Below the pieces are notes generated by a model. It was not told where the DNA came from and did not search any database. It worked only from the letters and a program-made list of their open reading frames with translations. A stretch of 60,655 nt of DNA from an uncultured Thermotogae bacterium (GTDB lineage Bacteria > Bipolaricaulota > Bipolaricaulia > UBA7950 > UBA9294), in NCBI GenBank assembly GCA_964530075.1, contig CAZGXU010000006.1, positions 1 through 60,655 on the forward strand, given 5' to 3'. Shown here one piece after another: positions 4,066-19,633 of this stretch. Position 1 is the first letter of the stretch, and the number at the start of each line of letters is the position of its first letter. Made by a program: the position numbers and the translations under genes.

Positions 4066-5337
4066 ATGAACCGGAGACGGCGTCGCGTGGCTCGACGCAA
4101 GTCGGCCTGGCTCCATCGCGTCGAGGCGTGGCTCTTCGGCTGGGCACTCCGGGACTCGCGCCGGCCGCTGTCGCGCGACCCTCACTTCTGGGTGGTCGTC
4201 GGCCTGTTCGGCGTGCTCATCGTCGTCTACTACGGCGAACAACTGAGGCTCGCCACCTACCTGCCCGGGCTTTCCGGATTCCTTACCACGGTGCACGACC
4301 TGCACCGCGCCCTGTTCTTCATACCGATCCTCTACGCCAGCCTTCTGTTGCGCCCGCTGGCGGGGCTGATCTCGTGCGCCGCGTCCCTCGTGATCATGCT
4401 TCCCCGCGCGATCTTCTTTTCGACGTTCCCGCATCCGGTCGTTCGCGTGATCGTGTTCGTCGTGCCGGCGGCGGTGACCAGCCTGTTCGTCTCCGCGATG
4501 CTCGACCAGATCAAACGAGGTCGCGCGGCACGGGCTCAGCTCGCCGATCTCCACGACGAACTCGCGGAGTCGCTGATCCGGTTGCAGGAGAGCGAGGAGC
4601 AGTTGATCCAGGCGGAGAAGCTCAGTTCTCTCGGTCAGATGGCGGCGTCGATCGCGCATGAGATCAACAACCCGCTCGCTGGTGTCCTCGTCTACACGCG
4701 GTTGATCGCCAGGAAGCTGGCGTCCGGCACGCTGTCCCGCGACGAGGCGTTGAGGGACCTCGAGAAGATGGCGAGAGAGATCGATCGCAGCTCGCGGATC
4801 ATCCGCAACCTGCTCGATTTCGCGCGGCCGTCCGAGCTCAGCCTCGGTGACGTGGACGTGAACCGGGTGATCGAGGACACGCTGGGATTGGTCGGCCATC
4901 GAGCAGCGCTCGGGCGGATCGAAGTGGTGAAGCAGCTGCAGCAAGACCTGCCGAAGGTCTACGCCGACCGCGATCAACTCCGGCAGGTGCTCGTCAATCT
5001 GACGTTGAACGCAATCCAGGCCACGCCACCCGGCGGGCGGATGACGCTGCGGACTCGGACGACGGAAGAGGGGACGCTGACGGTGGAGGTCGAGGACACG
5101 GGCCACGGGATCTCGGACGCGAATCGATCGAAGCTGTTCACCCCGTTCTTCACCACCAAGGAGAAGGGCGAAGGCGTCGGGCTCGGGCTCGCGGTGGCGA
5201 AGGGGATCATCGAGAAGCACGCCGGTATCATCTCGGTTCGCAGCGTCGAAGGTCAGGGAACGACGTTCTCCGTCTCTCTGCCGGTCCAAGTCCGTCCGAG
5301 CGGAGCGGCCGACGCCGAACCCGAGGCGCCGTTCTGA
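4066..5337 (+). CDS. membrane-bound sensor histidine kinase (NtrB-like transmitter)
   Basis: Several N-terminal TM segments, H-box IAHEINNPL, N-box NLTLNAIQA, DTGHGI, FTPFFTTK, GVGLGL. ATG is 7 bp after the apgM stop. Confidence 0.93.
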   Translation: MNRRRRRVARRKSAWLHRVEAWLFGWALRDSRRPLSRDPHFWVVVGLFGVLIVVYYGEQLRLATYLPGLSGFLTTVHDLHRALFFIPILYASLLLRPLAGLISCAASLVIMLPRAIFFSTFPHPVVRVIVFVVPAAVTSLFVSAMLDQIKRGRAARAQLADLHDELAESLIRLQESEEQLIQAEKLSSLGQMAASIAHEINNPLAGVLVYTRLIARKLASGTLSRDEALRDLEKMAREIDRSSRIIRNLLDFARPSELSLGDVDVNRVIEDTLGLVGHRAALGRIEVVKQLQQDLPKVYADRDQLRQVLVNLTLNAIQATPPGGRMTLRTRTTEEGTLTVEVEDTGHGISDANRSKLFTPFFTTKEKGEGVGLGLAVAKGIIEKHAGIISVRSVEGQGTTFSVSLPVQVRPSGAADAEPEAPF

Positions 5338-5378
5338 TCGATCGGCTTCCGATCCGTCGGCGGCCCACCGACGCTCTC

Positions 5379-6668
5379 CTACTTGATGAAGCGCACTTGC
5401 AGCAGGTGCGTCGAACAGGAGATGCACGGATCGTACGCCCGGACGAGCATCTCGAGTGTCCTCCGGATCTCGTCCTGAGGCCGGTCGAGGATCGCCGGGA
5501 CCAGCGCCTCCATGTCGTGCTGGATGTTGTTGTGGTTCTGATTCGTCGGGATGACGCAGTTCGCGTCGGTGAGGATTCCATCCTCGTCATACGAGTACTC
5601 ATGGAACAGGGTTCCGCGCGGTGCCTCGACCGCGCCGACGCCGCGCCCGGGCCGAATCTCGGTCACCTCGGGCTCCTCCTGAACGCCCGTCTCGAGGAGC
5701 CTGTCGATCAGCCGGATACTGTCCTCGGCCGCGTGCACCGCCTCGACGACCTGGGCGACCGTGATCTTGAACGGATTGTGACAAGGGGCCTTCAGCCCGA
5801 GTTCGACCGCCGCCTCTTGGGCGCGCGGAAGGAGCTGCTCGTGATTGAGATTGAACCGTGCGAGCGCGCCGACCTGGTACGCCTCCCGTTTGTTCCTGGT
5901 GTACTTCGCTGTCGAATGGGGAACGCAGAACTCGTTCGCTACCGAGCGGTACTCGTCGATCGGCACGATCCCGGCGTCGCTCGACGCGATGTCCCCGCTC
6001 GTGAACGCGTAGCCGTTCGGGTCCTTCAGCGCGACGTACTCGGTCTCGCGCTCGAAGTCGGGGACGGCGATCGTCTTGAACAGCTCGACCGTCGCATCGA
6101 AGTCATCGAGCGCGTCGCCGAGGGCGTCGCCGACCTCGGCGAGCTTCTCCAAGTCGGGGAGCTTGGCGAAGCCTCCGACGATGCAGGAGATCGGGTGGGT
6201 CTTCCGTCCTGCGAGCAGCTCGGCGATGCGGTACGCCAGCCGCTTCAGCGTCATCGCGCGGACGACGACCTCCTTGTGGGTGTCGATCAGCGAGATGACG
6301 CTGCCCACGCCGAAGAAGTCCGGCGCGGCGAGGCAGTAGGCATGCAGGACGTGGCTCTCCAGGATCTCGGCGTTGAACAGGAGCCTGCGCAGGAGACGTG
6401 TCTGCTCCGACACCGAAACGCCGAGCGCCGCCTCGGAGGCGTGCAGCGACGCGGTGGAGTGCGCGATCGAGCAGATGCCGCAGATCCGCGACGCGATGTG
6501 CTGGACGTCGCTGTAGTGGCGGCCGCGGAGCATCGCCTCGAACAGGCGAGGCGACTCCACGACCTCCCAGCGGACCTCCTCCAACCGGCCGTCGGTCGCG
6601 TTGACCAGGACGTTTCCGTGCCCCTCGACCCGGGTGACATGATGGACGTGGATGTCGAACGAGCTCAC
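5379..6668 (-). CDS. hydA: group 3b [NiFe] hydrogenase (sulfhydrogenase-type) large alpha subunit
   Basis: GTG start overlapping the delta stop. Motifs HVTRVEGHG, RICGICSIAH, EAPRG, DPCISCSTH plus a short C-terminal extension. Confidence 0.92.
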   Translation of the reverse strand: MSSFDIHVHHVTRVEGHGNVLVNATDGRLEEVRWEVVESPRLFEAMLRGRHYSDVQHIASRICGICSIAHSTASLHASEAALGVSVSEQTRLLRRLLFNAEILESHVLHAYCLAAPDFFGVGSVISLIDTHKEVVVRAMTLKRLAYRIAELLAGRKTHPISCIVGGFAKLPDLEKLAEVGDALGDALDDFDATVELFKTIAVPDFERETEYVALKDPNGYAFTSGDIASSDAGIVPIDEYRSVANEFCVPHSTAKYTRNKREAYQVGALARFNLNHEQLLPRAQEAAVELGLKAPCHNPFKITVAQVVEAVHAAEDSIRLIDRLLETGVQEEPEVTEIRPGRGVGAVEAPRGTLFHEYSYDEDGILTDANCVIPTNQNHNNIQHDMEALVPAILDRPQDEIRRTLEMLVRAYDPCISCSTHLLQVRFIK

Positions 6669-7405
6669 CGGGCCACCTCCGTGTACGTGTTGTAGATTTT
6701 GAACTTCTCGACCACCTGATCGACCGTGAGCCCATATTTCTCGAGCACGTCCTTCTGCGAATCGATGTTCGGGTCGTCGACCAGCCCGCGACAGCCCCAA
6801 CAATGGCGGCCGGCGGTGACGCAAATTGCGTTGCACCCGGCGCGGGTCACCGGACCGAGGCAGCTGCGGCCCAGTTCGAACACGCAGACGTTCCCCGCCA
6901 TCTTGCACTCGACGCAAACCGGGTAGTTCGGCAGCTCCGGCGTCTTGCCGAGCAACAGCTCCTTGACGATCCGCAGCAGTTCGGCGGTGTTGATCGGGCA
7001 GCCCGGCACGCAGTAATCGACCGGGATCACCGCGTGGATCGGGCGTGCGGGAATCGTGTCGTAATCCCCGGCATCGTCGCCGTAGACGATCTCCAACGCC
7101 TCGTCCATCGCGAGGTGATTCTTCAGGCAATTGACTCCGCCGATGTGAGCGCACGCGCCAAGCTCGATGACGATGTCGGCCCGCTCACGGATCTCTTTCA
7201 GCCGCGGGATCTCGGACTCACGGGAGATGCTCCCTTCGACGAACGCGATGTCGTAGCGATCGGCCCGACCGGTCAGCACTTCGCGAAACTCGACGATGTC
7301 GACGGCGCTGACCAGATCCACGAGATCCTGTCCCTCGATGTTGAGCGTATCGAGCTGGCAGCCTTCGCAGCAGGTGAAATCGAAGAACGCGACCTTCGGC
7401 TTCAT
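6665..7405 (-). CDS. hydD: group 3b [NiFe] hydrogenase small delta subunit
   Basis: TCCEGC, VEGS, LGACA, PGCP, VCVEC..C, CLGPVTRAGC, CWGCRG. Confidence 0.92.
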   Translation of the reverse strand: MKPKVAFFDFTCCEGCQLDTLNIEGQDLVDLVSAVDIVEFREVLTGRADRYDIAFVEGSISRESEIPRLKEIRERADIVIELGACAHIGGVNCLKNHLAMDEALEIVYGDDAGDYDTIPARPIHAVIPVDYCVPGCPINTAELLRIVKELLLGKTPELPNYPVCVECKMAGNVCVFELGRSCLGPVTRAGCNAICVTAGRHCWGCRGLVDDPNIDSQKDVLEKYGLTVDQVVEKFKIYNTYTEVAR

Positions 7406-9732
7406 TACACCGCCTCCCGCAGATTCCGAAGCTCGGCCAGGGTGAACACCGGCCCCTCCTCACAGACGTAGACGCCGTTGATCTGGCAGTGTCCGCACTT
7501 GCCGACGCCGCACTTCATCCGGCGCTCGAGCGACAGGATGATCTGTTCGTCGGCGAGCCCCTTCTTCTTCAGCTCACCGATGACGAAGCGATACATGATC
7601 GGCGGGCCGACGACGACCGACATCGTCCTGGCAGGGCTGATCTCGATTTCCGGGATCAGCGTCGTGATGACGCCGACGTGCCCCCCCCAGGTGTCGTTGC
7701 CGCGATCGACCGTCTCGTGGAATTCGATCCCGGCGTCCTGCTTCCAGGCCGCCAGCTCGGCTTGGAACACCCGCTCCTCCGGCGAGCGGGCGCCGTAGAG
7801 GATGATGAGGCGGCCGAACGCGTCCCGCCGATCGATGGCGTATTCGATCAGCGAGCGAAGCGGGAACAGGCCGATCCCCCCGGCGATCAGCAGGAGATCC
7901 TTCCACTCGAGCGCCTCGATCGGGAAGCCGTTCCCGAACGGTCCGCGGATCCCGACGGTCGCGCCTTCCACGAGGTCGTGCAGCGCGCGGGTGACGTTCC
8001 CGACGTTCCGCACGGCCAGCTGGAACGTGGCGCCCCGCGTCGGGGAAGACGAGATCGAGATCGGCGCCTCCCCGACGCCGAGGACCGAGATCTCGACGAA
8101 CTGGCCGGGGGTGTGGACCAGCGCGGCTCCGTCCTCGAACGCGAACTCGAACGCCTTTTCGTTCGCGGCGAGGTCCTCGACACGGAGCAGCTTCGCCCAC
8201 TTCGGCGCGTAGAGGCCGAAGTCGGGCGTGATCTCGCCGATCAGTCGGCGCGCCGTCTTGATCTTCGCCTTCTCCGCGATCGCGTTGAACGCCTCGGCCG
8301 GGCTGGCGATGTCGGCGAGGCAGGCCGTGGTGCAGCGACCGCAACCGACACAACCGACGATCCCGTATCGCTCGAGCACGTACTTCCCCTTCCGGAAGAT
8401 CCGGTGTCGGAAGCGGCTCGCCTTGTCGTGGCGGAAGTTCTCGCCGCCTGCGACCTTGGCGAAGTCGGTCAGCATGCAGCCGTCCCACTGACGGATCCGT
8501 TCGCCGGTCTTCAGGTCGAGCGACACTTCGTCCACGACGTCGAAGCAGAAACAGGTCGGGCAGACCATGATGCAGGAGCCGCAGCTGAAGCAGGTCGCGC
8601 TCCGCTCCTGCCAGTACTCGTCGTCGTAGTGGTCCTCGAGCAGTTTCGGGAGTCGCTCCCGGGCGACGTTGAGGGAGACCCGGTATTCGGCCCGCGCGGC
8701 GTCGAGGAGCGCCTTCTGGATTCCGATCTCCTCGTCCGACGGTACCCTGGCCTCGGCGTACTCCTCGAGGAGGGACGCGCCCCGCTGGGAGCCGACGCGG
8801 ACCATGAACCGGCCGCCGATGTCGGTGAGAAGGAGGTCGAACCCGCTGTCGGTCCGATCCGTGCCCATGCTGGGGGCGAACGCGTTCGGAGACGGGCGGA
8901 GACAGTCGACGCCGACGATCACCGTGTTCTGCCGGCGGGAGATGTAGTTCGGATCGGGGTGCTTCGTCATGAACACCTCGTCAAGGAGCTCGATTGCCGT
9001 GATGTCGTACGGATGCACGCCGAACAGCACCTGCGGCGCCGCGTCGACCGTCGGCTCGGCCGCGGGAGGCTCGCCGAGTTTCAGCCTCAACATCGCCTCG
9101 CGCGTAGGGAACAGGCAACGGGTCGGCGGATGAACGGTGACGTCGTAGTCGAGGCACACGTCGTCGAACCGCTTCACCCGGTCGAACACGTAGTGCTCCT
9201 GCCTCTCCACGACGCCGATCATCCGCATCGAGGCGGCGAGGCCGTCGAACAGCCGGCGAAGGTCGTCGCGATCGACGACGAACGACGCCTTCACCCCGAT
9301 GGCCTCCACGACCGGGGGGGCCGGAGTCGGCGCCTTGGCCTCGGCGATCACCGTCGCCTCAGGGGGGATCGACGCCAGCGTGTCGTCGATCAAGCGCTCC
9401 AGGCTGTCCGGGGCGAACGGCTTGATCACGTAATCGACCGCGCCGAGTCGCCTGGCTTCCTGTGCGGTCTCCGCCGACGGATACGCCGTGATCACGATCG
9501 TGCGGATCCACGGGCGTTCCGATTTCACCGCCTCCAATACCTTGATCCCCGCGCTGCCCGGGAGTCGAAGATCGACCACCAATACGCTGAAATCCCGGGT
9601 CGCCACCAGTTCCAGAGCTTCTTCGCCCGTCTCCGCTGTGGCGACCTGATACCCTGCTTCGGTGAGCCAGTCCCGGATCGATTCGCGCACAATCGGCTCG
9701 TCATCGACGACCAGAACCGAGTGCTCTCGCAT
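7405..9732 (-). CDS. fusion protein: receiver domain + sulfhydrogenase beta (4Fe-4S) + gamma (FAD/NAD(P), 2Fe-2S), 775 aa
   Basis: Start MREHSVLVVDDE. REC: DLRLPG, ITAY, KP. Beta: CFSCGSCIMVCPTCFCF, CVGCGRCTTAC. Gamma: PGQF, GPFGNGF, GGIG, MKCGVGKCGHC. All in one frame. Confidence 0.9.
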   Translation of the reverse strand: MREHSVLVVDDEPIVRESIRDWLTEAGYQVATAETGEEALELVATRDFSVLVVDLRLPGSAGIKVLEAVKSERPWIRTIVITAYPSAETAQEARRLGAVDYVIKPFAPDSLERLIDDTLASIPPEATVIAEAKAPTPAPPVVEAIGVKASFVVDRDDLRRLFDGLAASMRMIGVVERQEHYVFDRVKRFDDVCLDYDVTVHPPTRCLFPTREAMLRLKLGEPPAAEPTVDAAPQVLFGVHPYDITAIELLDEVFMTKHPDPNYISRRQNTVIVGVDCLRPSPNAFAPSMGTDRTDSGFDLLLTDIGGRFMVRVGSQRGASLLEEYAEARVPSDEEIGIQKALLDAARAEYRVSLNVARERLPKLLEDHYDDEYWQERSATCFSCGSCIMVCPTCFCFDVVDEVSLDLKTGERIRQWDGCMLTDFAKVAGGENFRHDKASRFRHRIFRKGKYVLERYGIVGCVGCGRCTTACLADIASPAEAFNAIAEKAKIKTARRLIGEITPDFGLYAPKWAKLLRVEDLAANEKAFEFAFEDGAALVHTPGQFVEISVLGVGEAPISISSSPTRGATFQLAVRNVGNVTRALHDLVEGATVGIRGPFGNGFPIEALEWKDLLLIAGGIGLFPLRSLIEYAIDRRDAFGRLIILYGARSPEERVFQAELAAWKQDAGIEFHETVDRGNDTWGGHVGVITTLIPEIEISPARTMSVVVGPPIMYRFVIGELKKKGLADEQIILSLERRMKCGVGKCGHCQINGVYVCEEGPVFTLAELRNLREAV

Positions 9733-9758
9733 CGCAACGGCCTCCTTCACGCGCGGTC

Positions 9759-10124
9759 CTATTCGGAGAGCGCCGCTCGAATCCGCCCTTCCAGTTGATC
9801 CGGAGCGATCGGCTTCGATAGGTAATCGATCGCTCCCAGCTTCATCGCCTCCGTCCGTAGCTCCGGTGAAGCGTACGCGGTGATGATGATCGCCTTGATC
9901 CCCGGCTTCGTTTCCTTCATCTCTTGCAGGGAGCGGATCCCGGTCTTTCCAGGAAGTCGGACGTCCAGGATCACGAGGTCGAAGTCCTGTCGCGCCACGA
10001 TCTCCAACGCTTCCTCTCCCGTCCTCGCGGTCGTGACGCCGTATCCGGCATCGACCAGCCAATCGTGAATCGCCTCTCTCACGATCGGCTCATCGTCGAC
10101 GATCAGAATCCGTGCGTTCGTCAT
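9759..10124 (-). CDS. single-domain response regulator
   Basis: ILIVDDE, DVRLPG, ITAY, KP; 121 aa with no output domain. Confidence 0.93.
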   Translation of the reverse strand: MTNARILIVDDEPIVREAIHDWLVDAGYGVTTARTGEEALEIVARQDFDLVILDVRLPGKTGIRSLQEMKETKPGIKAIIITAYASPELRTEAMKLGAIDYLSKPIAPDQLEGRIRAALSE

Positions 10125-10305
10125 GTCCCCACACGTCCTTTCGGCGGCCTTCGACCCCCGGTGTCGTCCCTCGAACCCGATCCCGGGGCAAAGGCCGTCG
10201 CGTCATGAGGAGGCCCCTCCCGTCAATCCGGGCGGCTCCGCTCCCCTGCCACGTATCGCGAATCCGCGTCCCATCCCCCCTCGCAAGCGGTTCGGGAATC
10301 GCGGG

Positions 10306-10335
10306 ATCATACTCACGCCTCGGAGTCGCTTTCAA
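10306..10335 (-). promoter_or_regulatory. sigma70-type promoter for the REC-hyd operon
   Basis: Minus strand TTGAAA-N18-TATGAT. Confidence 0.55.
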
Positions 10336-10442
10336 GGATTCCGCACGCGGAACCGCGCGCCGATGAGAGGACGGACCTACAGGGGGAGGACGCCGCGCTC
10401 GACCGAGGCACGCGCGACGAGGCAGCCGTCGAGCCGTCCGCG

Positions 10443-10934
10443 CTACCCGAGCGCGACGAGCTGCCCGCGCAAGAGCGCGACGTGCGACATCTCCTCTTTC
10501 AGGATCCGCTCAACCTTCTCCTTGCCGAGCTTCACCGGGACCAGATCGCGCAGCCCGAGGTAGAAGACGATCGATTCCTTCTCCAGTCCGATGGCGATGT
10601 TCAGCAGCTCCTCGATCGTCTTGTCGTCGACGAGGTCGACCGGGTCGGTCTTGAGACCGAAGACGTTGGCGTCGGCCATCGCCGCGAGATAATCGGCCGC
10701 TTCACCCCGGGGATCGAACGCCACGGGCTGGAACTCCTCGGCGCGGAGCGCCTCCCGCATCTGCGCGAACGTCCGCTCGTGGCGACCCTCCATCTCCGCC
10801 AGTTCGAGGAGCTTCCCCTTCGTCCCCTCGTCCGCGTCGCCCGCCTCGGCCGCACGGCGATAGAAACGCGCGCCGTTCCGCTCGATCCGCACCGCCATCT
10901 GCAGGATCTCGTCCGCGTTGAAACCGAATCCCAT
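10443..10934 (-). CDS. rubrerythrin-like/ferritin-family di-iron protein
   Basis: E(RNG)..FY, ExxH (EGRH), E(KES)IVFY, EEMSH. Confidence 0.88.
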   Translation of the reverse strand: MGFGFNADEILQMAVRIERNGARFYRRAAEAGDADEGTKGKLLELAEMEGRHERTFAQMREALRAEEFQPVAFDPRGEAADYLAAMADANVFGLKTDPVDLVDDKTIEELLNIAIGLEKESIVFYLGLRDLVPVKLGKEKVERILKEEMSHVALLRGQLVALG

Positions 10935-11042
10935 CGTCGTATCTCCTTGCCCCTCGTCGTGCGGGCGCCCGGTCTGTGCCGACGCCGTGCATGGTAGCGG
11001 GAGAGATCGATCGATGCCAAACCGGCGGGCGGCGCCCCGTAT

Positions 11043-11885
11043 CTAGTACTCGGCGGGAAGCCCGGAGAGCTGTTCGAGGGTGAACACCGGCCCGTCCTTG
11101 CACACGTACTTGCTGCCGATGTTGCAGCGGCCACACTTGCCGATCCCGCACTTCATCCGCATCTCGAGCGAGAGGATCGTGTCCGCCGGCGCGAAGCCGA
11201 GTCGCTCGATCACCGGGAGGGTGAACTTGATCATCACCGGGGGGCCGCAGACGACGATCAGCGCGTCCTCGGCGCTGGGTGCGACGTCGCCGAGAACCGT
11301 CGGGACGAAGCCTTCGTGGCCGGTCCAGTTCTCGTCTCCCTCGTCGACAGTGATGTGCGCTTCGAGGTCGTCGCGCGACCGCCACTCGTCGAGTTCGGCC
11401 TTGTAGAGCAGTTCCCCCGGGTTGCGAGCGCCGTAGATCACGGTGACGTCGCCGTAGTCGGTTCGATGGTCGTCGTGGATCACGTACCGGATCAGCGCGC
11501 GGAGCGTGGTGAACGCGAACCCTCCCCCGACGACCACGAGGTCCTTCCCCTTCATCCGCTCGATCGGGAACGAGTTGCCGAGCGGTCCTCTCACGCCGAT
11601 GACCCGACCCTCCCGCGATCGGTGGAGTTCCTCGGTGACGACGCCGGTCTTCTTCACCGTGAACAGCAGCGAACCGGTCTCGGTCGGGGAGGAGGCGATG
11701 CCGATCGGGCACTCGCCCGTACCGAGGACCGACAGCTCGGCGAACTGGCCGGGCGCGTGCTGAAACGCCTTCTCGTGCGCCGGGTCGAGGAAGACGAGCT
11801 CGAACGACTTCAGATCGCGCTCGTCGTTCTCGATCGTGATCCGATCGATCCGGACTGGATAGGGCACGTACGGGTTGTTCATCAC
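11043..11885 (-). CDS. flxA: FlxA, FAD/NAD-binding flavin oxidoreductase subunit
   Basis: PGQFAELS, GPLGNSFP, GGGFAFTTLR, MKCGIGKCGRC; located in the hdr-flx cluster. Confidence 0.85.
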   Translation of the reverse strand: MMNNPYVPYPVRIDRITIENDERDLKSFELVFLDPAHEKAFQHAPGQFAELSVLGTGECPIGIASSPTETGSLLFTVKKTGVVTEELHRSREGRVIGVRGPLGNSFPIERMKGKDLVVVGGGFAFTTLRALIRYVIHDDHRTDYGDVTVIYGARNPGELLYKAELDEWRSRDDLEAHITVDEGDENWTGHEGFVPTVLGDVAPSAEDALIVVCGPPVMIKFTLPVIERLGFAPADTILSLEMRMKCGIGKCGRCNIGSKYVCKDGPVFTLEQLSGLPAEY

Positions 11886-12916
11886 ACCGATCCCCCCGCC
11901 TTCGAGGTCGTTTCTACGAGACGCTCGAGGATCCTACGGATGTCGATCCCCGATGGGCAGTTCACGATGCACCGCCCGCAGCCCACGCAGAACGCCTCGC
12001 CGAAGTTCTCCGGGCAGTACGAGAACTTGTGGAGAATCCGCTGCCGCAGCCTCGCTCCCTTCGTCGGCCGTGGGTTGTGGCCCGAGCTGTGCAGCGTGAA
12101 CAAGGGAAACGAGCACGTGTCCCAGCTGCGCACCCTTCGCCCCGCGCCCTTTCGTCCTTCGTCGGTGATGTCGAAACAATGGCACGTCGGGCACGAGTAC
12201 GTGCAGGCGCCGCAGCCGAGGCATCCGAGCGCCAGATCGGACCACACGTCCGCCTCGAACGCCTCGACGAGCCCCTCCGCATCGGTCGGGATCGTCACCG
12301 GCGTCAACCGGCCTTCCGCCTTCGCGGCCAACTCCCTTGCCTTCGCGGCGGCGGCGGCGGCGGCCGGCCGCGCCGCATCCCCGGCGCCCCGGAGGAGCAC
12401 CTCGCCGCGGTCGGTGACCGCTCGGAGGAGGAGCGCGTCGCCGAGATCGGTCGCGAGCACGTCGGCGCCCGTCTCGTCGCCCGGCGACCCGCCGACCGAG
12501 GTGCAGAAACAGGTCGGTCCCGGTTCGTTGCACGCGAGCGCCACTACCGTCGTCCTTCCTCGCCGTTCCAGGTAGTACGGGTCCTCGGTCCCGTCCCAAC
12601 GGAACACCTTGTCGAGCATCGTCAGCGAACGCGCGTCGCAGGGCCGGACGCCGAACAGCACGGTCTCCGGCGCCTCGGGGATCCGCTCCGTTCCCCCCCC
12701 GTCGCGAAACGCCAGCAGCGTCTCGGTCTGAGGAAAGACGACCCCCTTCGCCGACAGCGAGGTGTTCCGGTAGTCGAGTCGTACCTTCGCGACGTCCCCG
12801 ACCACGCCGAACGAAGCGCCCGTCCGATCGTCCAACGGCGCGATCAGCCGCCGCTCCCTCGCGAGGGTGCTGAGGAACGTCGCGAGGTCGGTCTTTCCGA
12901 GGATCAGCTCGTTCAT
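11882..12916 (-). CDS. flxB: FlxB, 4Fe-4S subunit (AsrA-like)
   Basis: GVRPCD, CFCTS, CLGCGACTYSCPTCHCF, CVGCGRCIVNCP. Confidence 0.85.
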   Translation of the reverse strand: MNELILGKTDLATFLSTLARERRLIAPLDDRTGASFGVVGDVAKVRLDYRNTSLSAKGVVFPQTETLLAFRDGGGTERIPEAPETVLFGVRPCDARSLTMLDKVFRWDGTEDPYYLERRGRTTVVALACNEPGPTCFCTSVGGSPGDETGADVLATDLGDALLLRAVTDRGEVLLRGAGDAARPAAAAAAAKARELAAKAEGRLTPVTIPTDAEGLVEAFEADVWSDLALGCLGCGACTYSCPTCHCFDITDEGRKGAGRRVRSWDTCSFPLFTLHSSGHNPRPTKGARLRQRILHKFSYCPENFGEAFCVGCGRCIVNCPSGIDIRRILERLVETTSKAGGSV

Positions 12917-12933
12917 CGATGTCTCCGTTCCCT

Positions 12934-13932
12934 CTACGGCTCGGTCATGAACCCCTCGTCGTCCGTCATCTCGAACCGCATCAGCGGTTCGGGCTCGTCG
13001 AGGGAAGCGCCCACGTCTCCTCCGAACAGCGACTTCACGTCATGGTTGACCTTCTGATTCAGCAATCTCAGATCGATCCCCTGAGGGCACGCGGCGACGC
13101 ACGCGCCACAGTCGACGCATCGCCCCGCCTGGTGAAACGCTCGGCCGATGTGGAAAAGCATCAGATCCGACAGGTCGGTCGTGACGCCGATCCATTGAGG
13201 CGCGGTCTCTTGTGCGAAGCACTCGGTGCAGTAGCAGTTGGGACACGCCTCGCGGCACGCGTAGCAGCGGATGCAGCGGGAAACCTCCTCCTGGAACGAC
13301 TGCCAGCGCTCCTCGATCGGTCGTTCGGCGAACGCTTGCACGTCGGCGAAGCGCGCGATGTCGTCGTCAGGCGGGATCGGATCCCCGATCGACTCGTCGG
13401 CGAGCACGGCGTTGTGATGCCCGCACTCCCGACAGCCTCCGAGCAGGACCTCCGCAAGGTCGACCTCCCGCTCCAGGCCGTTCGTCGCGCGAAGCCGCAG
13501 TCGGTCTCCCTTCAGGAACTCCGCCTCGACCAGCTCGGCCGGCCCGAGCAGACGCGACGCGCGGTGCCGGTCGACCATCCCCCCACAGCTGACGCCGATG
13601 ATGTACATCGCGTCGCGGGGGATCTGATGTGCCTTGATCAGCCCGACGATCGAGCGGCTGACGCAGCCCTTGGCGACGACGCCGACGCGCGGCGGCGTCC
13701 ACTCTCCGCGGAACCCGGAGGGGCGCTTGAGGAGGTCCGGCAGGAGTGCAGCGAGATTCGACGTGCAGCAGGCGTTCCACACCAGCGCCTCGGCGTCCTG
13801 GGCGGAGCGGGCGACGTGCACCGACGATTTGAGCGGCACACTGGCGTCCGCGTACCCGATGAACAGGTCGACGGTCCCTTCGCGAAGCAGCTCGGCGACG
13901 CGCCGTCTCAATTGCTCCTGAATCTCGCTCAT
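12934..13932 (-). CDS. flxC: FlxC, 4Fe-4S subunit
   Basis: Start MSEIQEQL. Motifs AKGC, CIRCYACREACPNCYC, AGRCVDCGACVAACP. Confidence 0.82.
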   Translation of the reverse strand: MSEIQEQLRRRVAELLREGTVDLFIGYADASVPLKSSVHVARSAQDAEALVWNACCTSNLAALLPDLLKRPSGFRGEWTPPRVGVVAKGCVSRSIVGLIKAHQIPRDAMYIIGVSCGGMVDRHRASRLLGPAELVEAEFLKGDRLRLRATNGLEREVDLAEVLLGGCRECGHHNAVLADESIGDPIPPDDDIARFADVQAFAERPIEERWQSFQEEVSRCIRCYACREACPNCYCTECFAQETAPQWIGVTTDLSDLMLFHIGRAFHQAGRCVDCGACVAACPQGIDLRLLNQKVNHDVKSLFGGDVGASLDEPEPLMRFEMTDDEGFMTEP

Positions 13933-14393
13933 CGCACCGTCTCGATCTCCTTGATCATCCGCGTCGCCGGGCCGATCTCGCGAACGGTCTCGATCACCCC
14001 GAGCAGCAGCTCGGCGAATCGGATCCCCTCCGCTGCTGATACCCACGCGAAGTGGACGCGCTCCGGCTCGATCCCGACGTACTCGAGCAGGCTCTTCATC
14101 AACGCGAACTTGCGGCGCGCGTAGAGGTTCCCGCTGATGTAGTGACAGTCGCCGGGGTGGCAGCCGCTGACGAGCACGCCGTCCATCCCGCTCTGCAGCG
14201 CCTTGACGATGAACAGCGGGTTGATTCGCCCCGAACACGGGACGCGGATGACGCGGACGTTCGGCGGATACTGGATGCGGCTGACGCCGGCGAGATCGGC
14301 ACCGGCGTAGCTGCACCAGTTGCACAGGAACGCGACGATCCGCGGCTCCCATCCCGCTCCTCGCTCGCCCCGGCCTTTCGTCAGGTCGGTCAT
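13929..14393 (-). CDS. flxD: FlxD/MvhD-family 2Fe-2S subunit
   Basis: FLCNWCSYAGAD, CSGR, GCHPGDCHY, WVSAAEG. Confidence 0.87.
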   Translation of the reverse strand: MTDLTKGRGERGAGWEPRIVAFLCNWCSYAGADLAGVSRIQYPPNVRVIRVPCSGRINPLFIVKALQSGMDGVLVSGCHPGDCHYISGNLYARRKFALMKSLLEYVGIEPERVHFAWVSAAEGIRFAELLLGVIETVREIGPATRMIKEIETVR

Positions 14394-17392
14394 ACGACAG
14401 CCTCCAGCATCGCGAGGATCTGCTCGTCTTTGAACCCTTTCAGATCGATCGCCGCCGCGAGGCACGACGCGGCGCAGACGCCGCATCCTTTACAGAGCGC
14501 CTCGTTGACCACCGCGTAGCCCGCGTCGGGATCGAGCTCGATCGCCTTGTACGCGCACACCTCGACGCACGTCCCGCAGCCGCTGCAGCGGGCGGTCCGG
14601 ACCGTCGCCACCTTTCCCTCCGTCTCGAGCGCGCCCTTGGACAGGACGGTCGCCGCCCGTCCGGCCGCCGCCTTCGCCTGTGCGATCGCCTCCGACATGT
14701 CCTTCGGGTAGTGCGCCAGCCCGCAGACGAAGACGCCGTCGGTGGCGAAATCGACCGGTCGCAGCTTGACGTGCGCCTCGAGGAAGAATCCGTCCTCGTC
14801 GAGGGGCACCTTCAGCATCTGCGACAGCTCCTTGTTTCCCGGGTTCGGCGCGACGCCGGACGACAGGACGACGAGATCCGGTTCGAACCGGAGCGATCGG
14901 CCGAGGATGAGGTCGTCGACGTCGACGAACAGACGATCGTCCTCGATCCGCACGACCGGCTTCTCATCTCGGTCGTAGCGGCAGAAGAGAATCCCCTTCT
15001 CGCGGGCGTCGCGATACAGCAGCTCCTTGAGGCCGTACGTGCGCACGTCGCGGTAGAGGATGTGGATCGCCGCGCGGGGATTGAGTTCGCGCAGCTTGAG
15101 CGCGTTCTTCACCGCGCTGGTGCAGCAGATCCGGCTGCAGTAGGGGCGATCGTCGTCGCGCGATTCGACGCACTGGATCATCACGATCTCCCCCGCCTGC
15201 CGGAGCGCCGGATCGCCGGCTGCCAGCCGGCCCTCGAACGAACGGAGCGTGATCATGCGGCTGTCTTCCCCGTAGTGGTACGAGGTCGGGACGACCGCGT
15301 CGGCGCCCGTGGCGACGATCACCGCGCCGTGCTCGAACGGCTCCGACCCGTCGGCGAGGGTGGTGACGAAGTTGCCGACGTACCCGGCGACCTCGGCCAC
15401 CGTGGTCCCGGTGTGTACGGTGATCCGCTCGTCCGTCTTCACCTTCTCGATCAGCGTCCGCAGCGAAGGGGCGGTCGGCTGACCGTCGTGGGTGAAGTGG
15501 ACGTGCCGCAGGTTGCCGCCGAGCTCGTGCTCCCTCTCCACCAGGTGCACCGGGAACCGTTGCGCGGCCAGTTCCAGCGCCGCCGACATCCCGGCGACCC
15601 CGCCGCCGATCACCAGCGCCGACTTCTGGATCCCCAGCGTCATCCTGGTGAGCGGCTCGAGGCGGACCGCCTTCTCGAGCGCCATCTCCAGCAGCCCCTT
15701 CGCTTTGGCGGTCGCCTCGGTCGGTTCCTTCTGATGCACCCACGAGCATTGCTCGCGGATGTTGACGAACTCGAACAGGTGTGGGTTCAGCCCGGTCGCC
15801 TGCAACGTGCGCTGGAACAGCGGTTCGTGCGTGCGCGGCGTGCACGCCGCGACCACGACACGGTTGAGGTTCTTCTCGCGGATGACGTCGGAGATGGCCT
15901 TCTGGGCGTCCTGGGAGCAGGTGAACAGGAATTCTTGCGCGTGTTCGACGGACGGGAGCCCGCCGGCGTGGGCGACGACCTCCGGCACGTCGACCGTCGC
16001 ACCGATGTTGATCCCGCAGTTGCAGACGAACACGCCGACTCGCGGCGGCTCGCCGCGGATGTCGCGTTCCTCCGGGTACTCGACCGCGAACTCCGCCGGC
16101 GGCATGTCGGCGACGACGCCGGCGGCGGCCGACGCCGCGGCCGACGCCTCGACGATCGACTCCGGAATGTCCTTCGGCCCGGAGAGTGCGCCGCAGACGA
16201 AGATCCCCGGCCGCGGGGTGCCTACCGGATCGAACGCCGACGTCGGCACGAACCCGGAATCGTTGATCGGAAGGCCGAGCCGCGCCAGAGCCGCCCGCTG
16301 CTCGGGGCGGGTGACCAGCCCGAGCGACAGGACGAGCAGGTCGAACTCCTCGCTGACGACGCTCGATCCGTCCGGCGTGTACCGAAGCACGACGTTGTCC
16401 GTCGTCGGATCGGTCTCGACCGACGAGATCCGCGCGCGGACGAACCTGCAACCCCGCTCCCGTTCCGCCCTGTCGACGAACCGGTCGAACCCCTTCCCGA
16501 ACGCGCGGACGTCCATAAAGAACACGGACGTCTCGACATCGTCGAGGTGCTCGCCGAGGATGATCGCGTCCTTCGCCGCCTGCATGCAGCAGATCGAGGA
16601 GCAGTACTCGTTGCCGACTTGGCTGTCGCGGGAGCCGACGCACTGGAGGAACGCGATCCGCCTCGGCTCTCTGTCGTCGGACGGTCGGGTCACGTGACCG
16701 CGGCTCGGGCCGCTGGCGGACAGGATCCGCTCGAACTCGATGCTCGTCACTACATTGGGGAACGTCTTGTAGCCGTACTCGTCCTTCTGGATCGCGTCGA
16801 ACTCGGACGCCCCGGTGGCGAGGACGACGCTTCCGACCTCCACCTGCTCCGTCGCCGGTTTCTGGTCGTAGTCGATCGCGTCCGCCTCGCACACCTTAGA
16901 ACAGACCCGGCACGTGCCGCGCGTGAGGTAGAGGCACTTCGACTCGTCGATCATCGCCGCCGCGGGCACCGCCTGGGGAAACGGGACGCGGATGCACTTG
17001 GTCATCCCCAATCCGACGTTGAACGGGTCGGGCACCTTCACCGGGCACTTGTCGGTGCACGCGCCGCATCCGGTGCATCGGTCCACGTCGACGTAGCGCG
17101 GCCGCGTATGCAGCGTGACCGAGAACCTCGGCGCCTCGCCGTCGACGGCGAGCACGTCGGTGTTGGTGAAAATGCGGATGGAGGGGTGGGCTCCGGCCTC
17201 GACGAGCTTCGGCGAAAGGATGCACATCGCGCAGTCGTTGGTCGGGAACGTCTTGTCGAGCTGGGCCATCCGGCCGCCGATGCTCGGGCCGCGCTCGACC
17301 AGCAACACCTCGATCCCCATCTCGGCGAGATCGAGTGCCGCCTGGACGCCGGCGATCCCGCCTCCCACGACCATCACTCGTTTGTGATCCAC
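14390..17392 (-). CDS. hdrA: heterodisulfide reductase subunit A family protein (1000 aa, two FAD modules)
   Basis: GGGIAG..IGGRMAQLDKTFPTNDC, QCVGSR, CSSICC, GVFVCNCG, CTPRTHE, second GGGVAG, LRPVDF, C-terminal 2x4Fe-4S. Confidence 0.93.
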   Translation of the reverse strand: MDHKRVMVVGGGIAGVQAALDLAEMGIEVLLVERGPSIGGRMAQLDKTFPTNDCAMCILSPKLVEAGAHPSIRIFTNTDVLAVDGEAPRFSVTLHTRPRYVDVDRCTGCGACTDKCPVKVPDPFNVGLGMTKCIRVPFPQAVPAAAMIDESKCLYLTRGTCRVCSKVCEADAIDYDQKPATEQVEVGSVVLATGASEFDAIQKDEYGYKTFPNVVTSIEFERILSASGPSRGHVTRPSDDREPRRIAFLQCVGSRDSQVGNEYCSSICCMQAAKDAIILGEHLDDVETSVFFMDVRAFGKGFDRFVDRAERERGCRFVRARISSVETDPTTDNVVLRYTPDGSSVVSEEFDLLVLSLGLVTRPEQRAALARLGLPINDSGFVPTSAFDPVGTPRPGIFVCGALSGPKDIPESIVEASAAASAAAGVVADMPPAEFAVEYPEERDIRGEPPRVGVFVCNCGINIGATVDVPEVVAHAGGLPSVEHAQEFLFTCSQDAQKAISDVIREKNLNRVVVAACTPRTHEPLFQRTLQATGLNPHLFEFVNIREQCSWVHQKEPTEATAKAKGLLEMALEKAVRLEPLTRMTLGIQKSALVIGGGVAGMSAALELAAQRFPVHLVEREHELGGNLRHVHFTHDGQPTAPSLRTLIEKVKTDERITVHTGTTVAEVAGYVGNFVTTLADGSEPFEHGAVIVATGADAVVPTSYHYGEDSRMITLRSFEGRLAAGDPALRQAGEIVMIQCVESRDDDRPYCSRICCTSAVKNALKLRELNPRAAIHILYRDVRTYGLKELLYRDAREKGILFCRYDRDEKPVVRIEDDRLFVDVDDLILGRSLRFEPDLVVLSSGVAPNPGNKELSQMLKVPLDEDGFFLEAHVKLRPVDFATDGVFVCGLAHYPKDMSEAIAQAKAAAGRAATVLSKGALETEGKVATVRTARCSGCGTCVEVCAYKAIELDPDAGYAVVNEALCKGCGVCAASCLAAAIDLKGFKDEQILAMLEAVV

Positions 17393-17393
17393 G

Positions 17394-18506
17394 TTACGCT
17401 CCCAGTCGCTCCTTCGCCCTTCCTCGCTTCCGACTCGTGAACGACACGATCTTCGCCATCATCTCGGTGGCGTGATTCCGGCGGCCTTCCGGCGCGGTGA
17501 ACGTCAACTCCTGGATCGCCCGGGCGTTGCGCGCACCGTTGTACACCCTCTCCCCCTGCGAGCTGCGGACGACCACGGTCGTGTATCCGCCGGGAGACCC
17601 GAGTCCGCCGCACGAGATGTCGGCAAACTCGTTGGAGAAGTCGGAGCACGCGAAGCAGGCCGGGCGGGCGAACTCGTCGACCAGGTAGAACGGCACGTGC
17701 AGCGTCTCCCCCTCACGGGTCGTCACGATCACGTCGTCCTTCACGTTCAGCCTCGCGATCTTGTCGAGCTGAACGCCGAGGACCTCCTCCAACCGCCCGC
17801 GCGCCGGTTCGTCGAACGCGAAGCTCTCCATGCAGAAGAGCCCGATGGTCAGCGCCACGGTGTCGGACGGGAGGACGTTCAGCAGCTGCATCTTGCGGAT
17901 CGTGCGGATCTGGCACGGCGTGCCGACGACGGCGATCCGCCGGATGTCCTGTTGATGCAGATCCCGTATCTCTCGGACGGTCGGTGAGAACGTGGTGTAC
18001 TGCCGTCCCGCCTCGTGGAGTTGGCGCGATTCGTCGTAGTGCGACCCGGCCGCTTCGGCGATCGCTGCGGGGGTTGTCGCGACGATCACCTCACGACCGA
18101 ACGTGTCCGTCTCCCGTGACACGACGGCCGCCTGGACGATGTGCTTCTCCAGCGCGTGGATGAGCAACGCGGTGACGACCCCCCCGTCGGTCCCCGCGGC
18201 GCGCACGGCATCGTCCGCCGCGGCCGCGGACGTCATCTTCCGTACCGGACCGATCGGTGCGGTCCAGGCATGGCGATCGCGCAACTCGTCGTCGAGAACC
18301 CGAATCTGCGGGCAGATCAGATAGCAGATTCCGCACTTGAGACAGCGCTCCTCGTCGGCGTATCTGGGCGAGCCGTCCTCGTCGAGCGTCAGTGCGTTGA
18401 ATTCGCCGGCGGAGCAGAACGACACACAGCCCCCGCACTTGCCGCAGATTCCGCGCTCCTGGACTTCGGCGATGAGGTCGCTGAACGTCTTGACGTCACC
18501 CTTCAT
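17394..18506 (-). CDS. FrhB/FdhB-family flavoprotein with N-terminal ferredoxin
   Basis: Start MKGDVKTF. Motifs CGKCGGCVSFC, CLKCGICYLICP, DGGVVTALL, VGTPCQ, IGLFC, CFACSDF, ADISCG. Confidence 0.88.
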   Translation of the reverse strand: MKGDVKTFSDLIAEVQERGICGKCGGCVSFCSAGEFNALTLDEDGSPRYADEERCLKCGICYLICPQIRVLDDELRDRHAWTAPIGPVRKMTSAAAADDAVRAAGTDGGVVTALLIHALEKHIVQAAVVSRETDTFGREVIVATTPAAIAEAAGSHYDESRQLHEAGRQYTTFSPTVREIRDLHQQDIRRIAVVGTPCQIRTIRKMQLLNVLPSDTVALTIGLFCMESFAFDEPARGRLEEVLGVQLDKIARLNVKDDVIVTTREGETLHVPFYLVDEFARPACFACSDFSNEFADISCGGLGSPGGYTTVVVRSSQGERVYNGARNARAIQELTFTAPEGRRNHATEMMAKIVSFTSRKRGRAKERLGA

Positions 18507-19059
18507 CGACGGCCTTCTCACCGGCCGGCGACCCGTCGCCTGCCGTTCCTTCCTCTGACAAGGCCTCGGCACCGCCACCTTCCTTCGACGATTTCTCCGC
18601 CTCCGCTGCGGCGCGGCGCTTGACGAACGCGGCCAGCTCCTGTTCGAACGCCGCACGCACCCGCTCCGTTCGTGTCTCCTGGATCTCGCGGTCGATCCGC
18701 GCCACCTCGGCGAGCACCTCGGGCGGCGCGTGATTCCCTTTCATCGCCATGTAGCGAAGCGCGCGCATCACGTCGGTGAAGTTGACGCCCTGCGGGCAGC
18801 GCGCGGTGCATCGGTAGCAGAGGAGGCAGTACCAGATCAACGGCGAGGAAAGGACCTCCTCCCGCATGCCGAACAGGATCTGGCGGATGATCTTGCGCGG
18901 ACTGTACTCCGGCGCGACTTCGCTGACGGGACAGCCGGCGACGCACGTTCCGCACGCGAAGCAGCGGCGCACGTGTTCGCCGCCGGGCTGGGACGCGAGT
19001 TCGTCACAGAACGTCGGGTCCAGCTTCCCGATCTCCAGGGTCTCCATCGTTTCTGGCAT
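18496..19059 (-). CDS. hdrC: heterodisulfide reductase subunit C
   Basis: CFACGTCVAGCP, IWYCLLCYRCTARCPQGV, followed by a low-complexity C-terminal tail. Confidence 0.88.
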   Translation of the reverse strand: MPETMETLEIGKLDPTFCDELASQPGGEHVRRCFACGTCVAGCPVSEVAPEYSPRKIIRQILFGMREEVLSSPLIWYCLLCYRCTARCPQGVNFTDVMRALRYMAMKGNHAPPEVLAEVARIDREIQETRTERVRAAFEQELAAFVKRRAAAEAEKSSKEGGGAEALSEEGTAGDGSPAGEKAVDEG

Positions 19060-19073
19060 TCTCCTTCCCCCCT

Positions 19074-19607
19074 TCACGGCGATCGCGCGGCCGCCGGCTC
19101 GCGAAGGAATCGGTCCGCGATCATCGCCCCCGCCCGATCGATGGCCGCTTCCACCGCGGGGGACCTCTCCTCCGTCATCTCTTCCGGGATCCTCGACACT
19201 TGGCAAGCGATCACCGTGACGCGGACGTCGCCGACCTGTCGGAGCTCCCGAAGCAGGTTCGACGTCGGCGCTTGATGCAGTGAAAACTCGGAGACCTGGA
19301 CCCTCGGAAGCCGATCGAGCGGGATCTCGAACACCTCTCCCGGCGTGCGGCCGAGATCGACGGCATCGACGACGACGACGAGCCGAGGTCGACGCTCGCT
19401 CAGCACCATGTCAAACAGCAACGAGCGCACTCCGGTCCCCGCGTCGATCACCGCCGCCCAGTCAGGGATCGGGACGGTGGCGTTGAGCCGCGAGGCGACG
19501 GCCGGCCCGAACCCGTCGTCGCCGAACAGCGTGTTCCCGCAGCACAGCACCACGACGTCCTTGGCGCAGTGATCGGGCAGGGCCTCGTCCGTCCAGGTGT
19601 CCGACAT
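19074..19607 (-). CDS. hydrogenase maturation protease (FrhD/HycI-like)
   Basis: GNTLFGDDGFG, IDAGT, VDAVD, FSLH. Confidence 0.9.
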   Translation of the reverse strand: MSDTWTDEALPDHCAKDVVVLCCGNTLFGDDGFGPAVASRLNATVPIPDWAAVIDAGTGVRSLLFDMVLSERRPRLVVVVDAVDLGRTPGEVFEIPLDRLPRVQVSEFSLHQAPTSNLLRELRQVGDVRVTVIACQVSRIPEEMTEERSPAVEAAIDRAGAMIADRFLREPAAARSP

Positions 19608-19633
19608 CCGATCTTGTCCTCCTTCGCTCCGGG

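Follow-up and report, generated by a model that had tools for sequence, protein, structure and literature searches.

A receiver domain in frame with two hydrogenase subunits

The window studied here is the whole 60,655-nt stretch of contig CAZGXU010000006.1 (assembly GCA_964530075.1), which comes from an uncultured bacterium of the Bipolaricaulota, and our subject is a single gene on its minus strand, at positions 7405-9732, together with the hydrogenase genes that adjoin it. The gene encodes one protein of 775 residues, named here REC-HydBG, whose N-terminal residues in translation are MREHSVLVVDDEP; a Shine-Dalgarno sequence, GAAGGAGG, lies 8 nt ahead of its ATG at 9732. An earlier reading of these letters, made from the sequence alone (the original prediction), had described, without naming the strand, an in-frame fusion of a receiver, a linker, HydB and HydG, and translation, Pfam and NCBIfam all agree with it. 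A receiver domain (REC) is followed by a flexible Pro/Ala linker, a HydB-like Fe-S module and a HydG-like FAD/NAD module, so that the receiver is N-terminal to the enzyme module, in the usual receiver-to-output order. The parts of the gene are:

9373..9732, minus strand: fused receiver, residues 1-120, phospho-acceptor D54 (Pfam and alignment; best solved relatives NtrC1, FleR and Spo0F-type receivers)
9286..9372, minus strand: Pro/Ala-rich variable linker, residues 121-149 (alignment; predicted local distance difference test score, pLDDT, below 50 at 125-147 in an AlphaFold2 model)
8248..9285, minus strand: HydB-like Fe-S module, residues 150-495 (Fer4_22; ShyB/HydB models; PDB 9nez chain B, sulfhydrogenase 1 beta, E 2.7e-52)
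7405..8247, minus strand: HydG-like FAD/NAD(P) and 2Fe-2S module, residues 496-775 plus stop codon (FAD_binding_6, NAD_binding_1 and DHODB_Fe-S_bind; PDB 9nez chain C, E 1.7e-60)

Pfam Response_reg (PF00072) matched residues 6-115 with 97.6 bits against a cut-off of 30.2, placing the domain among CheY-like receivers. The acidic pair, the phospho-Asp, the Thr and the Lys-Pro that had been read in the receiver are all present (D10 and D11, D54 within VVDLRLPG, T82, Y101 and K104-P105), as is the linker sequence AEAKAPTPAPP. In an alignment of 26 full-length homologues D10, D11, D54, T82, Y101, K104 and P105 were invariant and the receiver was among the best-conserved parts of the protein, while residues 120-150 varied in both length and sequence. 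By these features the fused receiver is a normal CheY-like domain, canonical and strongly constrained. The AlphaFold2 model of the whole protein, built on the 26-row alignment, had a mean pLDDT of 69 and a predicted template modelling score (pTM) of 0.39; its Fe-S regions fell below 50 and the linker was predicted to be disordered.

In the remainder of the protein Pfam recognised Fer4_22 (380-475), FAD_binding_6 (514-601), NAD_binding_1 (615-717) and DHODB_Fe-S_bind (736-768). NCBIfam models of the sulfhydrogenase beta subunit span residues 155-476 and those of the gamma subunit 506-767, all scoring under their equivalog cut-offs (HydG 211 against 650 bits; ShyB 219 against 690). Because these cut-offs are not reached, we place the enzyme part, by sequence, at some distance within the group 3b sulfhydrogenase type and do not take it as an equivalog of the Pyrococcus SHI/SHII subunits.

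The fusion recurs in other genomes and sequencing runs

The original prediction had proposed two checks on the fusion, a search for its domain architecture and coverage of both of its junctions, and each came out in its favour. A search of 5.8 billion proteins returned 120 best matches of which 119 carried REC, beta and gamma domains (759-798 residues, 62-100% identity), under source names that include Bipolaricaulota and Chloroflexota/Dehalococcoidia. Contigs from other, separate runs, labelled salt-marsh metagenome, bridge both junctions: one 3770-nt contig of run X2 spans 6600-9899 with 3 differences, and contigs of run X3 cover 8981-9704 (the REC-beta junction) and 8084-8583 (the beta-gamma junction).

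An assembly or gene-calling artefact was considered and rejected as practically excluded; the same open frame is found in 39 loci and in contigs of separate sequencing runs, and we found nothing that speaks for an artefact.

At the 3' end of the fusion gene, the region of the LERRMKCG...CGHC motif (7439-7539) matches a second site on the same X1 and X2 contigs with 21 differences. This site is presumably the HydG-like paralogue near 11.1 kb. Word depth over the same segment is also raised by contigs of other organisms.

The hydrogenase unit and the neighbouring kinase

The fusion gene stands in a compact unit in which a stand-alone receiver gene is followed after 26 nt by REC-HydBG, then with a 1-nt overlap by hydD, and with a 4-nt overlap by hydA. 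The TAA stop of the fusion gene shares 1 nt with the ATG of hydD, and the TGA stop of hydD overlaps the GTG start of hydA as GTGA. A histidine kinase gene converges on hydA from the other side:

10306..10335, minus strand: sigma-70-like promoter match, TTGAAA-18-TATGAT (a consensus match only, about 180 nt 5' of the stand-alone receiver gene, in a 318-nt gap)
9759..10124, minus strand: stand-alone receiver, 121 residues, paralogue of the fused receiver (Response_reg 112 bits; DD, D54, T82, Y101 and K104 readable; ends 26 nt 5' of the fusion gene)
6665..7405, minus strand: hydD-like small subunit, 246 residues (Oxidored_q6; HydD/ShyD models; junction sequence)
5379..6668, minus strand: hydA-like [NiFe] large subunit, GTG start (NiFeSe_Hases; best NCBIfam models ShyA and HydA)
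4066..5337, plus strand: membrane histidine kinase, 423 residues from the ATG at 4066 (HisKA 189-255, HATPase_c 301-408; convergent with hydA, 42 nt from the end of that gene)

The promoter scan of the region gave 3 matches where 0.3 were expected.

The best solved matches of the hydA product were 5yxy (alpha subunit of the Thermococcus kodakarensis cytosolic NiFe-hydrogenase, 1.6e-69) and 9nez_D (Pyrococcus furiosus sulfhydrogenase 1 alpha, 5.5e-67), and both of its CxxC NiFe-ligand motifs (RICGICSIAH and DPCISCSTH) align with 5yxy, as in a group 3b large subunit. The components of a group 3b diaphorase arm are likewise all there, namely the HydB-like Fe-S module, the HydG-like FAD/NAD(P) module and the small subunit HydD. 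The Pyrococcus enzymes have four separate subunits, whereas here beta, gamma and REC are one polypeptide; within the family this feature varies.

To look at gene context more broadly we examined the 80 best genome loci for the fusion protein, a ranking that favours in-frame arrangements and from which no frequencies can be derived. The next gene was hydD in 80/80 and hydA followed in 76/80, the remaining 4 being cut by contig ends. These neighbours bear on an alternative in which the protein would be the electron module of an AsrAB-type sulfite reductase, or some other non-hydrogenase flavoprotein. The models TIGR02910 (AsrA, 132 bits) and TIGR02911 (AsrB, 219.5 bits) do match it, and several homologues carry the name 'sulfite reductase subunit B' from JGI. 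Both scores lie under the curated cut-offs of 323 and 288.6, the overlapping neighbour genes are hydD and hydA rather than AsrC, and among solved structures the best matches are the beta and gamma subunits of sulfhydrogenase, so we regard this alternative as very improbable.

The kinase begins with about 170 residues that contain hydrophobic segments. A Pfam scan recognised no sensor domain in this membrane region and gave no PAS match, and an atlas search returned only unnamed clusters and MASE/DUF4118-like leads (0.87-0.93). Its start is probably at 4066, given that a longer frame from 3826 runs into the upstream phosphoglycerate-mutase gene and that homologues have about 400-435 residues. 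Alignment of 14 neighbouring kinases revealed the H-box AHEINNPL and, within 4066-4580 (plus strand), a conserved membrane motif kept in most of them, T-x-HD-[LI]-[HY]-x ... LFF-x-P-[ILM]-[LIM]-YA, for which no matching family was found. No DNA-binding regulator is encoded within the unit. On sequence grounds we assign the stand-alone receiver and the kinase, neither of which figures in the original prediction, to the hydrogenase unit.

An intact receiver pocket goes with the kinase

A receiver and HydB share one frame in 39 loci (the window, 7 from genomes, 17 from metagenomes and 14 regions from further genomes). We took a locus as assessable when it showed a homologue of the kinase, defined by an identity of 44% or more across 150 or more core residues, or when at least 2 kb upstream and at least 1.3 kb past hydA were visible. 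By this rule 27 loci could be judged, and in them the presence of the kinase accompanies an intact phospho-acceptor pocket:

Intact pocket (DD, D, T, K): kinase present in 14, absent in 1 (L091)
Altered pocket: kinase present in 0, absent in 12

At L091 only 1.3 kb is visible past hydA. The 12 altered loci represent 3 independent changes on the beta-gamma tree. Nine related Dehalococcoidia genomes (L173-L181) have D11 replaced by S or A, with A83D and Y84H; two members of the window's family (L185 and L186, genomes G1298 and G1293), of which one belongs to the window's genus, have D11 replaced by R or G and PG by DN, with T82A, Y101H and K104R; the third change, K104R, is found at L002 (genome G806). 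L185 and L186 have neither the kinase nor the stand-alone receiver, and their hydD and hydA are intact. Some of the altered-pocket copies sit in closed or near-closed Dehalococcoidia genomes.

The stand-alone receiver follows the same pattern, being directly upstream in 18/25 intact-pocket loci and in 0/12 altered-pocket loci. Genome-wide, each of five intact-pocket genomes had a full-length kinase match, membrane part included, on the same contig, while 4/5 altered-pocket genomes had only unrelated kinase-core matches (35-41% identity) or none. From neighbourhood and co-variation together, we infer that the neighbouring kinase is the cognate kinase. Full-length hydD and hydA were kept in 12/12 altered-pocket loci, and the enzyme would therefore have a role of its own and not serve only as a sensor.

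The same lineages are what could be said for the receiver being a structural or assembly module only, a pseudo-receiver in whose work phosphorylation has no part. Three lineages retain an altered-pocket receiver without the kinase and keep the enzyme, and the receiver would therefore have some value that does not depend on phosphorylation. In the window and its nearest relatives, though, the pocket is complete, the window's kinase and stand-alone receiver adjoin the fusion gene, and an altered pocket together with a kinase occurs in 0/27 loci. We find it improbable that the receiver in the window is such a module.

Two further couplings of two-component proteins to HydB

The HydB arm is joined to signalling domains in other ways as well. 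In an all-against-library search, eight 50%-cluster representatives were REC-HydB proteins without gamma. A REC-HydB profile gave 2535 matches at E <= 1e-30, and among the best 120, which we inspected, there were 19 REC-HydB proteins of 463-531 residues and 21 proteins of 731-863 residues with Response_reg, HATPase_c and Fer4_22 (HisKA listed in 15/21). The source names of the longer class include Phycisphaerae, Planctomycetota and Anaerolineae. The order REC-HisKA-HATPase_c-HydB was found in 6/6 of those scanned; in 3 HisKA was over the E limit of the scan (1e-6). The H-box His is present. The receiver pocket is intact in 19/21 of the kinase-containing proteins and in 16/19 REC-HydB proteins, 2 more of which have E for the first Asp.

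The REC-HisKA-HATPase-HydB form was absent at E <= 1e-120 from 401 sampled genomes of the phylum of the Anaerohalosphaeraceae locus (L041) and absent from five hand-picked genomes, and it was present in 1/401 sampled Chloroflexota. REC-HydB with a separate gamma was found neither among the stored loci nor in the Dehalococcoidia genome sample. One Chloroflexota locus (L172, 5540-16600, minus strand) shows the kinase-containing form in context: the REC-HisKA-HATPase-HydB gene (9443-11674) is followed by separate hydG, hydD and hydA genes, a 165-residue open reading frame and a stand-alone receiver, and upstream of it lie two more kinases and a receiver.

These recurrences, in three architectures, support a functional tie of the phosphorelay to the HydB arm, as far as sequence can indicate one. 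It is in our judgement about equally likely to hold or to fail that REC-HydBG, REC-HydB and REC-HisKA-HATPase-HydB make up an undescribed class of signalling-coupled [NiFe] hydrogenases, in which the relay would either gate the enzyme or read its redox state.

Close relatives of the window's kinase (55-62% core identity) and of its receiver also occur at L126 (5197-16360) and L112 (7860-14483) beside HdrBC-, HdrA- and NfnAB-like and Mvh-type genes, in sets that further include an NtrC-type sigma-54 regulator and a REC-TPR protein. The kinase/receiver family thus seems to be tied to H2 and Hdr metabolism more widely.

The hydrogenase as possible output or input of the relay

The arrangement in the window may, with about an even chance of our being right, represent a response regulator whose output is the diaphorase arm of a cytoplasmic, NAD(P)-linked [NiFe] hydrogenase of the group 3b type, served by a dedicated phosphorelay. 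The neighbouring membrane kinase would autophosphorylate upon a membrane-associated cue and act as phosphoryl donor both to the tethered receiver, at D54, and to the stand-alone paralogue. The phosphorylated receiver, held on a flexible linker of about 30 residues, could then alter the activity, the oligomeric state or the choice of partner of the REC-HydBG/HydD/HydA assembly, and H2 evolution or uptake would be switched without fresh synthesis and maturation of the enzyme. The stand-alone receiver would most likely be a competing acceptor, or a partner that sets the threshold. What is observed is the architecture and its conservation, the coupling of the genes, the kinase beside them and the co-variation of kinase and pocket; phosphotransfer, the way in which control runs, whether it activates or inhibits, and how it works physically are all inferred. 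We favour the direction from kinase to enzyme because the receiver is canonical and N-terminal, the kinase is separate and has a membrane input of its own, no DNA-binding regulator is found in the unit, and the enzyme survives the loss of signalling.

The relation could also run the other way, with the hydrogenase as input. The redox state of the Fe-S and flavin centres of beta-gamma, set by H2 or by NAD(P)H/NAD(P)+, would alter the gain or loss of phosphate by the tethered receiver, and the stand-alone receiver would be the true output. The tethered receiver would then act as a redox-dependent phosphate sink, and the whole would correspond in function to the HoxBC-HoxJ sensor complex, with a metabolic enzyme at its core. 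Relatives in which the kinase core is fused directly to HydB suggest such a design, and at L172 the genes that come after such a fusion are hydG, hydD and hydA, with one for a stand-alone receiver beyond them. The window has two receivers for one kinase, and related kinase/receiver sets lie near Hdr/Mvh-type clusters with a sigma-54 NtrC-type regulator, so that elsewhere the family would feed transcription. Against this, the unit itself holds no DNA-binding regulator, and of the genome's 15 receiver matches none has a sigma-54 domain in the same frame (for the 13 frames beyond the window this was judged by eye, with no domain scan, in a genome that is 84.7% complete). The kinase has its own membrane input region, the receiver is N-terminal to the enzyme module, and hydA keeps both CxxC pairs and residues past the last His, unlike the group 2b sensors. 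Three lineages, moreover, lost the kinase and the intact pocket and yet kept the enzyme. We therefore consider the hydrogenase rather unlikely to be the input, and note that the two directions are not mutually exclusive.

Several points weigh against the hydrogenase as output of the relay. The proteins with a kinase core fused to HydB fit a redox-sensing kinase at least as well, and two receivers also allow a phosphate-sink design in which the tethered one is not the output. The co-variation rests on three lineages or events, and the loci are related, so the counts of 14 and 12 overstate their independence; moreover the altered-pocket genome G806 (L002) keeps a 59%-identical kinase core on a different contig. 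The membrane input region of the kinase matches no Pfam family. The AlphaFold2 model is too poor to show where the receiver sits on the enzyme, and among the sequencing runs that contain 5300-10200 no RNA run is listed. A complex prediction for the receiver (1-125) and the beta-gamma body (150-775), made with 26-row alignments and no controls, gave a score of 0.00 against a mark of 0.32, and weighs neither way on docking.

The original prediction had gone further and proposed that the NAD(P)H/H2 enzyme itself is the phosphorylation-gated output. The canonical N-terminal receiver and a conserved kinase that tracks the pocket speak for this part of it, while the REC-HisKA-HATPase-HydB relatives keep the hydrogenase alive as an input. 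A natural series makes the idea of a relay-controlled hydrogenase testable, since it holds intact copies with the kinase, three degenerate lineages without it, one relative that lost the receiver and relatives with the kinase fused.

Distribution and origin of the fusion

As to how unusual the fusion is, only its receiver part proved special. Beta and gamma formed one open frame in 50/80 of the best genome loci, with a receiver in only 7 of them (L001-L007); the 43 beta-gamma fusions without REC come, by record title, mostly from Bathyarchaeia and Thermoplasmatota, plus some bacteria, and the other 30/80 loci have a true stop and then a new Met between beta and gamma. A beta-gamma fusion without a receiver is thus common.

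The REC form is patchy across representative genomes. It was found in 11/401 sampled Dehalococcoidia genomes (41 with a HydB match). Among 184 genomes from the window's phylum 46 matched HydB and 7 had the REC form; these 7 all belong to the window's family, and 3/8 genomes of the window's genus have it. At 50% clustering the REC-HydBG family is a single representative among 1.84 billion.

We built a beta-gamma tree from 39 of 77 extractable sequences, the 34 with REC and 5 chosen from those without, leaving out the other 38 REC-less ones. All 34 REC-bearing sequences and one REC-less sequence (L008, Chloroflexota) formed one clade with a Shimodaira-Hasegawa-like approximate likelihood ratio test (SH-aLRT) value of 100. 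L008 is nested inside this clade and has neither REC nor a kinase within 10 kb, which points to its receiver having been lost secondarily. Sequences from the window's family, nine in all, group together (SH-aLRT 99) within those of Chloroflexota, a placement that, with weak rooting, hints at lateral transfer of the cassette into this family.

A tree built from 150 receivers put every one of the 25 fused RECs into one clade of 35 rows (SH-aLRT 90). Its other 10 rows are one stand-alone receiver directly upstream of a fused one and 9 that were not scored as fused, mostly at or near contig ends. The neighbouring stand-alone receivers are the sister group of the fused ones. With the few columns of this tree, the topology is only suggestive of a single origin in which a stand-alone receiver was duplicated and then fused.

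Relation to known systems

The closest solved relatives of the four modules are the P. furiosus soluble hydrogenase I/sulfhydrogenase (9nez, 9nf0) and the T. kodakarensis enzyme (5yxy), with E values from 1e-52 to 1e-69; the identity of hydA to the solved large subunit is moderate. The window's enzyme shares with Pyrococcus-type 3b enzymes the NiFe ligand motifs, the Fe-S module, the FAD/NAD module and the order beta, gamma, delta, alpha. It differs from the Pyrococcus enzymes in the joining of beta and gamma to each other and to an N-terminal receiver, and in a unit that also comprises a kinase and a second receiver.

A [NiFe] hydrogenase physically tied to two-component signalling is also a feature of HoxBC-HoxJ-HoxA and HupUV-HupT-HupR. 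In the HoxBC/HupUV systems a group 2b enzyme works with a soluble kinase, and the output is a DNA-binding regulator; the large subunit of group 2b sensors is without a C-terminal extension, and the partner is a soluble PAS-kinase. In the window, by contrast, the enzyme is NAD(P)-linked and of the group 3b type, the receiver sits on the diaphorase arm, the kinase is membrane-bound and the unit has no DNA-binding regulator. The window's hydA ends DPCISCSTH-LLQVRFIK and its best matches are 3b and 3c enzymes, and the kinase, besides its membrane region, has no PAS match, all of which sets the enzyme apart from group 2b. HoxJ is described as the kinase in control of HoxA and as interacting with the sensor HoxBC (PMC2974642).

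The other comparison is with response regulators that have enzymatic outputs.

Such regulators include the CheB methylesterase, the diguanylate cyclases PleD and WspR, and RpfG. In the CheB/PleD type the receiver is N-terminal on a flexible linker, and phosphorylation controls the enzyme either by lifting an inhibition or through dimerisation. REC-HydBG resembles them in that a flexible linker joins its N-terminal receiver to a catalytic module, but its output would be an electron-carrying subunit of a multi-subunit metallo-enzyme and not a signalling enzyme.

The original prediction knew of no characterised example of such a fusion, and our literature search agrees: in the parts of the full-text literature that were seen, supplements aside, no account came up of a hydrogenase subunit joined to a receiver, and the search gave no case of a redox enzyme complex as the output of a response regulator. 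A word search of the text of PMC5847659, supplements aside, found no mention of hydrogenase, oxidoreductase, Fe-S or ferredoxin. As far as the literature searched can tell, the combination of a receiver with a hydrogenase arm is new.

Hydrogenases are known to be regulated at transcription and at maturation, the latter being slow and costly. If a phosphorylation switch does operate in the electron-transfer arm, anaerobes could start and stop H2 production or uptake in a matter of seconds, and models of the balance of H2 and NAD(P)H in sediment Dehalococcoidia and Bipolaricaulota would have to change. The outputs of response regulators would gain a new kind as well, namely a subunit of a redox complex with several cofactors; should the relay gate the hydrogenase, this would be the first redox enzyme complex known as a direct output of a response regulator.

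Neighbouring hydrogenase genes and the genome

Directly upstream of the unit, and on the strand of the fusion gene, 10443-21082 (minus) holds a second set of genes for hydrogen metabolism and electron bifurcation:

19634-21082, minus strand: MvhA-like NiFe large subunit
19074-19739, minus strand: HycI-type maturation protease
17394-18656, minus strand: FrhB/FdhB-like protein, with an Fe-S protein between the protease gene and this gene
14390-17392, minus strand: double HdrA-like protein, 1000 residues
13929-14486, minus strand: MvhD, with an Fe-S protein gene next to it
11882-12916, minus strand: unfused HydB-like paralogue
11043-11885, minus strand: unfused HydG-like paralogue
10443-10934, minus strand: rubrerythrin-like protein

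The window's genome (2.02 Mb) has 6 matches to NiFe large subunits at four loci, two of them in the window, and only 15 receiver matches, of which two are in the unit of the fusion hydrogenase.

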